A DNA stretch of 64,000 bases from Rhodospirillales bacterium (GTDB lineage: Bacteria > Pseudomonadota > Alphaproteobacteria > Bin95), in contig JAYQLI010000035.1 in NCBI GenBank assembly GCA_038143065.1, positions 1,056,001 through 1,120,000 of the forward strand, given 5' to 3'. The position numbers and the translations under genes were made by a program. Below the pieces are notes generated by a model that saw only the letters and a program-made list of their open reading frames with translations, was not told the origin of the DNA and did no database searches. How positions within the stretch are numbered: position 1 is the stretch's first letter; the number at the start of each line of letters is the position of its first letter. This document shows positions 13,536 to 19,393 of the stretch, piece by piece.

Positions 13536-16500
13536 CTAAAGACCGCTATCGCCTACGATAGTGAAGGGTGCCCAGAAGATGGGGTGGGCGTAGGAATAGG
13601 CCTCTTTTCCATCAGGGGTTTTAAATGTCCTGTTGTTGATGAGTTCTATGCGAGCCTGGCGTAAGGCTTCAGCACGATTGATAGTGTGTTCATTAGCCTG
13701 CCTGCTAAAGAGGGTCGTCATTAACTCAGTTGCTGCAGAATGAACTGGCCAGTTTGAGACCAGAAGTGAGCGACTGCCGGCATAGAAGAAAGCGCGGCCC
13801 AAACCTGATACTGCTTCCGCACCCTGCCCTTCACCAGATGCTGTATTGCATGCAGAGAGCACGACCCAATCGGCATTGAGTTTAAGACCCAAAACCTCAC
13901 CCATGGTTAAGAGGCCGTCATTCTCCTTCTCCCCTGTAACCTCAGGAGAGGATAACGCCAGGGCTGGCTGGTTCAGTCCGTTAAGATCACCAGGAATGAG
14001 GCCGTGGGTGGCAAATGAGATGACCTTGTACGGGGAGAGATCTTTAGTCCTGACATTCTGCTCACTTGCCTCACTGCCTAAGAATACATCTTGCGCAATC
14101 TTTGCGCCGGTCACCTCAGCAATGGCTGTAATCTCAGGCCGAGTATCAGGGAGGCGGGGAAGCAGCGAAAGAGTAGCACTGTCAGCAGCACGTGTGTTGG
14201 GCGCGCTGCGTAACTTGAACCTGGGAATACCTCTCGTTTCTGTTAGCGATGCTACTTGAATAGCGTCTTCTTTTTTCCTTCTTCTGCCTGAAGGGGATTG
14301 AAGTACGGATCACCAAAACCAACAAAAGGTTTACGCTTAGAGGACGTCGCTTGTGTATCCCGCAGTGTCTCCAAGGACTCTACAGACGGCAGCATCGTCA
14401 CAGCATGGCTCTTAGCCAACCAAGGTACATCTCGGTAGTTGGCAAACAACAGATCACCTTCTGCAGGAAGACGAACTGGCTCCTTCACCAATAGGGAGAA
14501 TGGTAAATGACCAAGTGGTCCGTGCGCCACAACAAAAAGGTTCTTGGCATCCTTCCATCCAATCTGAACAGGTTCCAAAAGCTGCTTGTAGAGCTCGTGC
14601 GCCTCCTTAACATCAAAGTCAGGAATGTCACCCAAGCTGGAGACTTCCCTTGGGGCTAATGCCAGGCGCAACTGATTAACGACTTTCTTTAAAGCCTCTC
14701 GCCCCATATCTACTGATGCAAAGGTAATTTGGCCTGTCTTAGGAACAGCCCAGACATACGTCCGATCACGCGCTGAATGGGTAATCAGGGCAGCCTCATC
14801 TGGCTGCAGGCTCTTCTGCAGACTGTCTACCGAGGAGGTGGTGGGTTCATCAACTTTGCATAAATTGGGAACCGCGCATTGGTTTCATCAACCAACGCTC
14901 GCTTAGCGTCATTCAATGCAGCCAACTGTTTGCGCAGCTCAAAGATGTCATTACTGCCAACTTGTTCTTTGGGCGCTGTCTGCAGATAAACAATCCAATC
15001 TGTCAGATTCAAAACATTTTCATTGATATCTTGCGTTTGGCGAACGAGCTCTGCAAAGTTCAGGGTCTTTAGCCGCAGCCCGCGCAGCAGAGGCGGCAAA
15101 AGCCTTTTGTACCCTACCTGACGGGATCATATTCGAAACTTGGAAGAGTTCCTCACCAGCATCGATACCTATAGCAGACGCTGCCGACCGGCCATCACTT
15201 GAAGACAGAAAGTCCATATAGGCTTCACGGAAAAACTCTGCGCGTCCCTCGCGCCCACCAGCTTTGATTGCACCACCTTGTGTGTATGCCTCTCTAAGGT
15301 AGGGAGCATCACATCCTGAAAGGCTGCCATTGCCTGGTCTGCTTGACCTAAATTATGCAATGCTAACCCTTTTACTAATTTGAGCTCATTCAGGGACTGG
15401 GTATCTTCACTACTGAGTTCAACTCATTGCGATAGCCACGTCGATATCCTGGAGCAGACCAGAATCCCCACCCCCAAAAGCACGGGTCAACAGTAAGTCA
15501 GCATTGGTGCCAAAGAGATCATTATAGCGGGCCTCGTAGCCCTTAAAATCACGACGCAAAAGGGCCATCAGATCTTGGATCTCAGACCATTTTCCTTGAG
15601 CACTCAGGGATTTTAATAATGTCCGCCAGGTCTCAACAAACGGAATACCATCAGGATTAGAGCACTCAGAATAGTGAATATTAATTGCTTGCTTAGCGAT
15701 AAATGCCGCATCGTCATATCGACCTTGCGCATACAAAATCTCTGCAAACGCAGCTACGCTAAGCGGAGAACTATTGGTATCAGGCGTGGCCAAATCCCTA
15801 ACGGCAAGTTCAGCTTCAACATAGCGACCTTGCATCATCAAATTATTAGCTAATCGAGAAAGAATTTCATCACCATCCATCGCCCAGTAAGCACTAAAAC
15901 CTAAGCCATGTTTTACTTTTTCCATACTTGGCGCAGCAGATACTCTTCAGAAACCAAATCCCCCGCATTCGCGCTTTCGACGCCTCAGCTGCATCCATAA
16001 TCATCTGAGCGCGATACCTATTTTTTTCTCGTTCAGGAACGTTCCTGTTGAGTTCAGAGTTGAGAGGCACTTGCGAAATCACTACTAGCGGCGGAGTAAT
16101 TCCCAGCATTCGTGTGCATTCGCCCCAATTGACTCATCAACACTGCTTTCCGGACGGAATTGGAGTTCTGGAGATTTTTCAGAGATGTACGACTTGCCTG
16201 GATGGCTAATTTAAAATTTCCATATTTGAACTGCTGATCGACGTATGAAGTTAATCTTGCAGCCGCATTTTGTCTTTCCGCATTTATAGAAGAGCCCGTA
16301 TCGGCAACGAAACCGTAATTTCATTTTCCCGATATGCCCTCTCCGCTGAACAGTTTTTCACCAAACGCCCTCACAGAACCATCGTTTATTTCTCGATAGG
16401 AAGAAATAGTCCGAGGCAGCTGTTTGGGCTCATACTTCTTAACGTTAGCTGCCAACTTTTTGGCATCATTTAGCGTCATTCGAGGAGGGGTTGAGGTTTG

Positions 16501-16560
16501 ACACGCCGCCAACAAAACAGCGGACGATGCAACTAGCAAAACATTGCGAAATATATTCAT
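13536..16560 (-). CDS. Lipoprotein with helical/TPR-like region and C-terminal CHAT (caspase HetF-associated) protease domain; multiple frameshifts
   Basis: Lipobox LAAC. CHAT motifs VAHGPLGHLPF, FVGFGDP, SFATHG (His), VLSACNT (Cys), AFFYAG and HPIFWAPF. At least 7 ORF pieces. Confidence 0.85.
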
Positions 16561-16607
16561 CCATATTTCCAACTTCTTTAGCTCTTAATTCACCGTACTT
16601 AAAAAAA

Positions 16608-18708
16608 TCACTTGTCTGTCCGAAGATATCCGAACACCCCTTCGATTGAAGGTGCCTCGCGTAATTGCGATATCGAGGCAGCCATGAATTTAGCAGCTGC
16701 CGCCGCTCGCCAATCACTTTGAGGCTAAGACCGTCCAAGCTTCTTCAGCTTGGTCAAAATTTCCAACTCTTAGATCCGATAGAGCGTTCTCATAATCTGT
16801 TTTAAATGCCTCATCGTTATCGGAAAGCCTCAGACACTGACATCAATGGTGTCCAAACAGTGATTGGCAATGATTTTCCACGAACCAAAACGTCGGCTAG
16901 GGGCAACATCACAAACTCCCCTTGAACTGCACGAGCTGTTTCTGTTCCCACAACTGTTCGAACTCCAAATATGGGGCCTAGGTTTTCAAAGCGAGCTGCA
17001 ACATTAACTGTTTCACCAATTGCAGAATAGCTTAACCGGCGTTTTGCACCAACATTTCCAACTGTCGCCAGACCGCTATTGATCGCTATCTTAACATCTA
17101 ACCCTCGTCCGTTTTCATGCATATCTGTGGCAGCCATAGCCAATATTTGGCGCTCAATGTTCCGGGCTGCCATCACCGCACTCGTCTCATGATTATCTAA
17201 ATCAGCTGGGGCATTCCAAATTGCCATTACCGCGTCGCCAATGAACTTGTCTACATACCCGCCCGACAAATCAACAACTTCCGCTATCGCGGAAAGATAG
17301 CGATTGATTGTCTCAGTGAGGGTTCTGCTGTCAACCACTTCCGAAAGTGCTGTAAAGCCAGACAAGTCAGCAAACATGACGGTAATTTCTCTCATTTCTC
17401 CATCTAAACGAGGCATCTCTGCTGAATTTGCCAGTCTCTCTACAAGCTGCGGAGCAAGATAAAACCCAAAATTTCGACGGAGGTTAATTGCTCGACGCTC
17501 CAAAACCAGGATTTTGAAACCCCAACCAGCAAAAAATGCAACAACTAATGTTAAAATGGACCTACCAGAGGGAACTACTACTTGCTCATTCATTAAGAAC
17601 AAAGATCCAACGAATATCAGTATCGAAACTACTAAAAGTGCAGCCACTCCAAACCTTGGGCCAACCGATACCGCCAACCAAGCTCCAATTACTGAACCAA
17701 TTGCTGATACAATACCTAAGTTTAGTTTTGAGGGCAGGTGGCTATGCAGCCCGCGAGATAAAGAATCAATTACTGCTGCATGATAAAAGACGCCAGGGAT
17801 ACTCCTGACATTTCCTCCAAAGGTATTTACTGGTGCAAACTTGCATTTAGAAACATAGGATATCGAATGACTTGGAGAAATAAATCTGTCGGGAGCTAGA
17901 TGCGATCTTCATCCGGCAATACAGATCCAATGAGCACCGTACGATGTTGGAATATCTCCTGGAGCGCTTCGCTGTTGCCGCACCTTATAACGTCAATCAT
18001 TGGTACTGACGGAACCATTGTAGTCAGACGTTTTTCAGGGGCAAGGATAGAAGGTTTAATATCTAAACCCTTTTCAAGTTGCAAAGCCGCTCCGGCTAGG
18101 GTGAATGCTTTTCTGCCACTGACTGTCTCTAACGCCAGTGGAATTTGACGGACCACACCATCTGCATCGAGCGGTAATTCTGCTAACGCGATGGACCCGG
18201 CTCCTGCAAGCGCTCGAAATCGCTCTGCAGGAATACCAGAAGCGGTACGCGCTAAAATAATCCTTTTTTCTTTTCTATGTTTCCTAAGAAGCGTTAAAAA
18301 AGGAGCATCAAATTTGGAGAATTCTTCAGGGCGCTCAACTCCTCCAAGCCCCCAGCGCGCGGTATCAAATTCCATCACGACGTCGAAAATCACGTTCTTA
18401 GCACCTGCCTGCAAGGCTTTAGAAGCCACCTCTGCAAAGAGAGGTGAGAACATTGCTCGAGGGACCTGCGCCTCTGGCGCAGCAAGTGTGGACTCATCAA
18501 CAGCTATTACAATAGTTGATGATGCATTATCTGAGCTATTCTTATCTAAATCTACTAATTTTTGTAAATGAAAATTTGAAAATATAGAAAAGTCAAAAAA
18601 TAATCCATCTATAGATGTTGTAAATGTTTGTTTATATGAAAACACTGAAAAAATTATCGATAATACTAATATAAATATTATTTTAGATAATTTCGTTTTT
18701 ACAGACAA
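16608..18708 (-). CDS. CHASE2-domain class III adenylate/guanylate cyclase; frameshifted
   Basis: N-terminal TM, then CHASE2 motifs IVIAVDE, IFDVV, DADGVVR and VLIGS. Three TMs follow, then the cyclase VMFADLSGFT, YVDKFIGDAVMA and IGETVNVAAR. It ends ...YLRTDK in a shifted frame. Confidence 0.88.
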
Positions 18709-18710
18709 TT

Positions 18711-19393
18711 TTACATACTTAAAATTGTAACAGAAGTTTTTGATTGACTACACTTAAATTTAACTTCTGACACATTACTTTCATTTATTCTAATTTTTAG
18801 TATATATTGTTCTCCAGGATGAAGAAGGGGTACTCAGGAGGAAGTGTGGCGGTCTTCCCAGCTAACCTCAATTTTGTTACCAGCTCACCATCGGCCGAAA
18901 AAAGCGCAACTTCGGAACCAGAAGGCCATCCAGAAGCAGAAGTAACAAATGTTGGCGACGTGCCTATACGACGCATTTTCTTGGGTGCTGCGCGTAATTT
19001 TATAGAACCAATTGCTGTCGTGTCATTCTTTAATACGACACGGTCCACGCAATTTTCTTTGGCTTTATCTAATATCAATCCCTTTTCTAATTTAATTTTA
19101 GATAAACCAATTTGTATCGTTCCACCTTGCACAATAAGGGTTTCACAGGTTTTGTAGTGCATGAAATTTAGCACTGCGTCTTCGGAGAGAGTAATAGTGG
19201 AGCCCGCGGATAACTCTTGGAATGGGAATAATGCCGGATCCACGCTTCCCTCCACGTCAAAAACAAGGACAACTGGTCTTGCTTCAACAGATCGAGGGGA
19301 TAGAAAAGTAGCCGCTGTTGAAACGACTAAACCTGCGAAAAAGAGTTTTTTGAACTCATTAACTCTGAAATTCTTAACAAGGCGGTCAATCAA
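18711..19393 (-). CDS. Secreted hypothetical protein (first gene of island operon); probable frameshift near 18830
   Basis: Signal peptide ending VEA and a beta-rich body with two Cys. The shifted frame continues PLLHPGEQYILKIRI...SM* to 18711, abutting the cyclase start. Confidence 0.65.

Follow-up and report, generated by a model that had tools for sequence, protein, structure and literature searches.

A tRNA-Met island carrying a small secreted protein, a CHASE2 receptor cyclase and a TPR-CHAT lipoprotein that may form one envelope sensing module

The DNA analysed here, referred to as the window, is a stretch of 64,000 nucleotides of contig JAYQLI010000035.1 (Rhodospirillales bacterium, assembly GCA_038143065.1, positions 1,056,001 to 1,120,000). 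Between positions 13536 and 19393 it carries three genes, which encode a small secreted protein, a CHASE2 class III receptor cyclase and a TPR-CHAT lipoprotein with a caspase-like protease domain. The three genes may constitute one extracytoplasmic sensing module with protease-gated cyclic AMP (cAMP) signalling, a reading to which we assign a probability of about 0.45. The small protein and the cyclase probably work together. Across related loci the conserved core is formed by these two, and the protease is interchangeable, being either a CHAT or a Peptidase_C14 protein. The CHAT protease family is not tied to CHASE2; it is the partner/cyclase pair that frequently recruits a caspase-fold protease.

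The ligand of CHASE2 is still described as 'not known', citing Zhulin 2003, in passages of PMC5192318 and PMC8195603. The module offers two genetically linked candidates for the CHASE2 input, a periplasmic partner family and an exported caspase-like protease, and it is compact, with three genes in 5.9 kb that could be transferred to a cya-minus laboratory host. It also points to a probable periplasmic signalling role for caspase-fold proteases, a group usually treated as effectors of death or defence inside the cytoplasm.

The three gene products and their reading frames

The small secreted protein is encoded on the minus strand at 18711..19393, and its true length is about 227 aa according to the translation and the database relatives. 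Its N-terminus is hydrophobic, two Cys are conserved as a pair, and an AlphaFold2 model shows two beta domains. An exhaustive HMMER search of 1.84 billion representatives retrieved 303 relatives at E<=1e-3, most of them 205-230 aa long. Both Cys are invariant across 80/80 aligned family members, which fits a periplasmic disulfide. No Pfam family was matched by the window protein even at E<=10, nor by any of the 80 members, and the absent matches include MtxA and DUF7354; the small protein belongs to a real, large family that has no Pfam name. The AlphaFold2 model (mean predicted local distance difference test score, pLDDT, 85.4) comprises the two beta domains and a low-confidence linker. A Foldseek search of the PDB with this model returned nothing at E<=1e-3, and VIA-align returned generic beta-sandwich matches only (Z<=7.7, within the noise range stated for the tool). 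The fold matches listed included no MtxA or FecR-type structure, and the family profile found nothing below E=0.26 among PDB sequences. In the protein atlas the best clusters are nameless, and the nearest named one, MtxA/DUF7354 at 0.76, is a lead only.

The CHASE2 receptor cyclase occupies 16608..18708 on the minus strand, from a TTG start at 18708 to a stop at 16608-16610, as read from Pfam matches and the translation. Pfam assigns CHASE2 (PF05226) with 48.8 bits against a cut-off of 26.3 and Guanylate_cyc (PF00211) with 67.5 bits against a cut-off of 21.9. An N-terminal membrane helix is followed by CHASE2, three hydrophobic stretches, the class III domain and a conserved C-terminal tail; the hydrophobic stretch ahead of CHASE2 is KIIFILVLSIIFSVF, and three lie after it in a topology read by eye. 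The motifs FADLSGFT, DKFIGD and NVAAR are present in the translation, and D430, D474, N551 and R555 are invariant in 33/33 related cyclases. We take these residues to be the two metal-binding Asp and the transition-state Asn and Arg, with a substrate-contacting Lys in DKFIGD. The pair of metal Asp, the DKFIGD Lys and the N-x3-R motif reported in the initial annotation are thus all in place. The substrate would be ATP, as read from the Lys of DKFIGD together with a Ser where Thr/Asp is usual, a rule that we assume to hold here. The host genome encodes a second CHASE2 cyclase in an uninterrupted 746-aa frame (G000:C35:2818607-2820847, minus strand); no second member of the small-protein family, second CHAT or C14 was found in it.

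The TPR-CHAT lipoprotein, of ~1000 aa, is encoded on the minus strand at 13536..16560 with an ATG at 16560, according to Pfam and the translation. Pfam CHAT (PF12770) is matched above its cut-off of 24 bits by two pieces, 13536-14114 (136 bits) and 14252-14707 (31 bits), alongside TPR matches, and the CHAT score in the whole-genome search is 149.6 bits. The dyad motifs FATHGL and LSACNT are present, with H102 and C154 invariant in 9/9 aligned orthologues, and over its C-terminal domain the protein shares 54-60% identity with intact orthologues. The N-terminus reads MNIFRNVLLVASSAVLLAAC/QT and contains a lipobox, VLLAAC/QT, recognised by eye in the translation. Orthologues share the lipobox (LLTSC/QT in L015, LLVSC/QT in L070), and about 16/20 neighbouring CHAT or C14 proteases have a strongly hydrophobic, signal-peptide-like N-terminus when read by eye. 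These features support the prediction of an exported, extracytoplasmic lipoprotein. The initial annotation had proposed a tight operon, a CHAT domain with its His-Cys dyad kept and a protease outside the cytoplasm. The three genes do share the minus strand with gaps of 2 nt and 47 nt, every domain call was recovered, and the dyad and the lipobox shared with L015 and L070 agree with what was proposed.

In the window copy the translation shows about 12 frame breaks in 5.9 kb. One lies in the small gene, whose frame 0 runs from 19393 to about 18833 before another frame takes over. Three lie in the cyclase (near 17900, 16828 and 16718) and about eight in CHAT, one of them an in-frame TGA near 16322. 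For the small protein, the database protein P0001 (227 aa, intact, 92% identical) has a C-terminus that agrees with the shifted frame of the window. Contigs for comparison came from four estuary-metagenome runs of one study, which may include the source sample; the four runs contain 0.58-0.65 of the sampled words of the island, and their contigs were aligned to 12000-19760. Runs X5-X20 contain just 0.11-0.13 of these words and are uninformative about habitat. Relative to the window, 1-nt insertions occur after 14833, 15959 and 16020 in 4/4 runs each and after 14276 in 2/4 runs, 1-nt deletions occur at 16718 and 16828 in 3/3 covering runs each, and an in-frame GTT is inserted after 13728. Ten further indels, placed by the gap counts of each contig, fall within 14834-15151, 15407-15781, 15842-15943, 16020-16204, 16292-16357, 17799-18094 and 18764-18969, which is where most of the remaining breaks fall; the gap within 17799-18094 belongs to the cyclase, and that within 18764-18969 is a 1-nt gap in the small gene. 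A scripted correction with the seven listed indels only lengthened the C-terminal part of the cyclase from 363 to 432 aa and gave a continuous CHAT frame of 531 aa from three pieces (99, 210 and 257 aa). The run contigs correct at least five of the ~12 breaks, with other 1-nt gaps around most of the rest.

The frame breaks are mostly assembly or consensus errors, and the module is therefore probably intact. The possibility raised in the initial annotation as a ground for refutation, that the frameshifts are real and the module dead, is contradicted by the run contigs with indels at the breaks. Because k-mer depth is ~3-5 in the island versus 7-14 in the left flank, the island is probably carried by part of the population only and is poorly polished. 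No contig joining across the island was seen among the run contigs, and none is expected because the 46-nt repeat that bounds it is longer than the assembler's word. Other genes in the window appear split as well (1176-1920; 7774-8714, a major facilitator superfamily (MFS) transporter; 28212-29257; 45647-46314), as does a cyclase gene elsewhere in the genome (G000:C35:2573241-2574002), and indel errors therefore also occur outside the island, at lower density. Among related loci, CHAT or CHASE2-cyclase genes are split at L065 4309-7528 and L050 8042-10065. The apparent pseudogenes are a lesson for annotation: they are artefacts, produced by the metagenome assembly of an island that varies between strains and has poor coverage.

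Genetic coupling and mixed ancestry

The profile of the small-protein family has matches in 41/401 genomes sampled evenly across the class. Leaving out the window and one match that has a 58-aa frame and a stop, and counting as one the two places that share a locus, we obtained 49 loci, and their neighbours were scanned within 5 kb, in all frames >=80 aa, with hidden Markov models built from Pfam-verified segments. A CHASE2 cyclase is present in 34/49 loci, usually immediately downstream on the same strand, and this coupling extends over many families; of the 15/49 loci that lack one, three are limited by a short contig or a contig end. A caspase-fold protease accompanies the pair in 18/34 loci, namely CHAT in 8 and Peptidase_C14 in 10, of which a subset was verified with Pfam. 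The C14 proteases bear Sel1 or WD40 repeats where scanned with Pfam, and 3/15 loci without CHASE2 have a C14 too. CHAT is scarce in this group, with any match in 10/41 related genomes, and the host genome encodes a single CHAT and no C14.

G025 has the trio too, with an intact CHAT of 60% identity, and the small protein of that genome matches the family profile with an hhalign probability of 96.9%. BLASTP of the window small protein against the small proteins of G025, G026 and G028 gave no match. The small protein of G028, which lies between the CHAT and the CHASE2 cyclase of that genome, was rejected as a family member (hhalign probability 0.5%). Distant members of the family are encoded near heavy-metal P-type ATPases or M24 peptidases (L068, L076, L078; L080, L088, L093) with no CHASE2 gene nearby, and the small-protein fold therefore serves other envelope contexts.

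The protease was also followed from its own side. When 185,579 species genomes were searched with an alignment of the CHAT C-terminal part, at least 590 relatives were returned; the best 80 (53-70% identity) come mostly from metagenome bins of Alpha-, Beta- and Gammaproteobacteria, Desulfobacterales, Rokubacteria and Methylomirabilota. Open reading frames (ORFs) of ~150 and 260 aa without Pfam matches follow the CHAT gene in Limnohabitans, Polynucleobacter and a Burkholderiaceae genome; on that strand Dechloromonas has the 260-aa ORF only and Bradyrhizobium the 150-aa ORF only. These ORFs, located at L115 8725-9959, L131 8734-9983, L163 8764-9989, L156 9165-9935 and L179 8771-9214, may supply the CHAT protease with another set of partners. 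In three loci (L126, L169 and L170), CHAT and Peptidase_C14 genes follow one another and precede those for the small protein and the CHASE2 cyclase.

Several partner/cyclase pairs have further neighbours. Two-partner secretion genes adjoin the pair in L071 (ShlB) and L082 (ShlB and TPS), an ATP-binding cassette (ABC) transporter with a cyclic-nucleotide-binding domain adjoins it in L079, and MscS-type channels are encoded nearby in L081 and in L092, the latter without a CHASE2 cyclase. The products of these genes are possible substrates or cAMP targets.

The components of the window module differ in ancestry. Its CHAT domain shares 54-60% identity with the CHATs found alongside one group of partner/cyclase pairs; for its small protein and cyclase, the nearest relatives (30-40%) are in a different group. 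A quick maximum-likelihood tree built from 33 cyclases places the window in a clade of 10 rows with a Shimodaira-Hasegawa-like approximate likelihood ratio test (SH-aLRT) value of 99; five of these rows have no protease, four have C14, and the window is the sole CHAT row, with the other seven CHAT-linked cyclases in the sister group. CHAT usually stands first, ahead of the small protein and then the cyclase; in the window the order is small protein, cyclase, CHAT. Judged from its sequence, the module is a recombinant of a partner/cyclase pair of one clade and a CHAT typical of another clade.

Proposed mechanism, alternatives and related systems

In the proposed mechanism, the small disulfide-bonded periplasmic protein would be a partner that binds the periplasmic CHASE2 domain. 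The TPR part of the lipid-anchored CHAT protease would recognise a protein or peptide cue on the periplasmic side, and the caspase-like domain would then cleave one of three targets: the small partner, the cue or CHASE2. The resulting change in CHASE2 would alter the cAMP output of the cytoplasmic class III domain. Co-folding of the small protein (39-228) with the periplasmic domain of CHASE2 (27-305), carried out for the intact L051 pair with alignments, scored 0.00, which weighs neither way. A bolder version, which we regard as doubtful, would make exported caspase-fold proteases the missing input of CHASE2, with the small protein as a proteolytic fuse whose cut state CHASE2 reads; the proteases would be modular (CHAT or C14; TPR, Sel1 or WD40), and the whole would travel as a mobile three-gene island. 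If true, envelope proteolysis would be converted into cAMP by exchangeable proteases and spread between bacteria as a self-contained island.

Several observations weigh against protease gating. The proposed linkage of the three proteins rests on gene context. A conserved Arg in the low-confidence linker (residues 125-136 of P0001) was tried as a cleavage site and rejected; it is present with or without a protease or CHASE2 neighbour and lends cleavage there no support. In 16/34 partner/cyclase loci no caspase-fold protease lies within 5 kb, and the protease is therefore not required for the core to exist. From the side of the protease, a CHASE2 cyclase lies within 8 kb in just 19 of the best 80 CHAT loci, in 15 of them together with the small protein, and the loci are related to each other, so that the counts overstate independence. 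The co-occurrence of CHAT and CHASE2 genes asserted in the initial annotation accordingly stands for the pairs, 18/34 of which have a caspase-fold protease, and is weak when seen from the best 80 CHAT loci. The cyclase tree is a quick version in which the window branch is long, partly from sequence errors. As for the reading frames, individual indels were matched to about half of the breaks, and ten of the indels are known from gap counts only; depth near 15108-15366, a stretch with a break near 15300, is very low, and the in-frame TGA near 16322 is covered only by a gap-count indel in one run.

It is unlikely, in our view, that the small protein is a CHASE2 co-receptor and the protease only digests envelope or foreign proteins, the resulting peptides being the ligand. 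Pairs that exist without a protease, and protease families that replace one another across loci, would agree with such a division of labour, as would CyaK and CyaD1/D2 of Sinorhizobium meliloti, which, according to passages of PMC7529298 and PMC13001267, respond to a protease-sensitive proteinaceous signal. TPR, Sel1 and WD40 scaffolds, however, suit specific protein recognition better than bulk digestion, and nothing here separates the reading of a peptide ligand from direct gating. Quite unlikely is hitch-hiking, in which a CHAT lipoprotein with its own envelope function would merely be adjacent to a partner/cyclase pair. It would account for the 61 of the best 80 CHAT loci that have no CHASE2 cyclase within 8 kb (some of them with short flanks), for the ten of these scanned with Pfam, where the neighbours are unrelated (including acetate kinase, MarR or an MFS transporter) or a pair of unknown small ORFs of ~150 and 260 aa, and for a window CHAT that comes from another lineage than its partner/cyclase pair. 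It fits poorly with caspase-fold proteases at 18/34 pairs, spread over many families, despite their rarity in these genomes, and with two unrelated protease families recruited independently to the same place; the 47-nt gap, the shared strand and the sole-cargo status also favour a unit.

An inside-out arrangement, in which CHASE2 and the small protein would hold or release the protease and the protease would be the output on a surface protein, has what we take to be a precedent in LapD/LapG, and the two-partner secretion genes beside some pairs (L071, L082) could supply surface substrates. We consider it improbable: the cytoplasmic domain keeps every catalytic residue of a cyclase and is no nucleotide receptor, and the island has neither a secretion pair nor an obvious substrate gene. 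That the module is a decayed pseudogene remnant, dead in its host, receives very little credence. The ~12 disruptions in 5.9 kb, the missing integrase and a degenerate third repeat speak for decay; against it stand contigs of 3-4 runs without the breaks that could be inspected, long frames restored, catalytic and structural motifs all kept, and the 92%-identical intact small protein in the database. An anti-phage or conflict system with a cyclic nucleotide alarm is just as improbable as decay. The module lies in a variable island, its cyclase domain matches PADLOC PycC models (E=5.6e-31), and caspase-fold proteases are known in conflict systems according to passages of PMC8195603. The PycC matches, however, reflect the shared class III fold only, the small protein and CHAT each match 0 PADLOC families, and the sensor and the protease are placed outside the cytoplasm, where phage replication goes unsensed, with no effector gene in the island. 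The module differs from Pycsar in the same respects, as its cyclase is a membrane receptor with no adjacent effector gene.

The closest studied system consists of the CHASE2 cyclases CyaK and CyaD1/D2 of S. meliloti, which act with NsrA and convert a protease-sensitive protein signal into cAMP; in the passages of PMC7529298 and PMC13001267 they are the sole CHASE2 cyclases studied. As proposed for the window module, the CyaK system comprises an inner-membrane CHASE2 class III cyclase with an accessory envelope protein (PMC7529298; PMC13001267). The accessory NsrA is described as an outer-membrane receptor, whereas the window encodes a soluble two-domain protein of 227 aa according to the model, and the S. 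meliloti system is described in those passages without a protease gene. The 'BiofilmReg' operons of Burkholderiales and Pseudomonas also encode an exported accessory protein beside a CHASE2 receptor, according to a passage of PMC5192318. In contrast to the window module, however, that partner is a LysM/FecR protein, the output is a histidine kinase and no protease is included in the passage, whereas here the partner has no Pfam match and the output is a cyclase (PMC5192318). MtxA of magnetotactic bacteria, as presented in part of PMC4439547, is a secreted immunoglobulin-like beta protein of ~300 aa in an operon with signalling genes. It has a TPR part, unlike the small protein, which has no MtxA/DUF7354 Pfam match and no sequence match in the PDB.

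Other relatives share the protease. Csx29 of the type III-E 'Craspase', as described in part of the literature, combines TPRs with a following CHAT domain that carries a His-Cys dyad, and the binding of a partner switches the protease. Csx29 is cytoplasmic and bound to Cas7-11 and CRISPR RNA (crRNA), whereas the window protein is a lipoprotein and has no CRISPR gene nearby, and the kinship is known at the level of Pfam domains only. No Cas7-11/gRAMP gene is present in the island, and a repeat search found no regularly spaced repeats in 12800-20000. Of the analogy to Csx29 drawn in the initial annotation, the shared TPR-CHAT fold holds and the Cas7-11 context does not. Caspase- or metacaspase-CHASE2 fusions of cyanobacteria and the EACC2 systems likewise tie a caspase-fold protease to CHASE2, according to passages of PMC3501461, PMC2853523 and PMC8195603. 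In those passages, however, the protease is fused, predicted to be cytoplasmic and the output, whereas in the window it is a separate exported protein on the CHASE2 side and the cyclase is the output. None of the compared systems joins a separate exported caspase-fold protease, the partner family and a CHASE2 cyclase, and no description of this trio was found among the open-access papers searched. The module, which is recurrent in nature, is a variant of accessory-protein-assisted receptor signalling.

The tRNA-Met island

The host, an estuarine alphaproteobacterium, has a genome assembly of 4.6 Mb in 52 contigs (97.6% complete, 5.5% contamination). The three genes lie in an island at tRNA-Met (CAT; 19673..19749, minus strand; ARAGORN; Rfam tRNA 64.9 bits), the integration target, which is the last gene of a complete rRNA operon (16S-tRNAIle-tRNAAla-23S-5S-tRNAMet; 19673-25224, minus strand; ARAGORN and Rfam). 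The boundary on the tRNA side is a 46-nt direct repeat of the 3' part of the tRNA (19672..19717), and a 100% identical copy at 13282..13327 forms the distal boundary, 6390 nt away, as given by the repeat search. Direct repeats derived from a tRNA 3' end on both sides of an insert are the mark of a tRNA-integrated island, and we infer that the unit arrived as a 6.4-kb insertion into tRNA-Met. A degenerate third tRNA-like copy at 19451..19491 is 80% identical to 13304-13344 and has the same non-tRNA extension as the distal repeat, which suggests an older or composite insertion.

Between the 46-nt repeats there are three co-directional minus-strand genes and nothing else; besides them the island holds 208 and 278 bases of non-coding DNA only. 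The module is thus the sole cargo, as first described. That it is mobile, the other half of that description, is borne out in part. Direct repeats, lower read depth and the lack of a match in 8/9 congeners speak for it, but no integrase or recombinase gene lies between the 46-nt repeats and no empty site was recovered in congeners, the sole close one (90% identity) having a contig that ends in the flank. The other congeners reach 66-69% identity at the island flank, over the gene only. The nearest gene outside the island encodes an alpha/beta hydrolase.

Just inside both island ends, the repeat search and reading of the sequence identified an 18-nt repeat, ATGCGAATATTTTGCGAA, at 13464..13481 and 19605..19622. 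Its distal copy (13464-13481) is part of the palindrome TTTTGCGAATTCGCAAAA, and the repeat could be a recombinase arm site or a regulator binding site. The module sits directly downstream of the rRNA operon, a very strong transcription unit.

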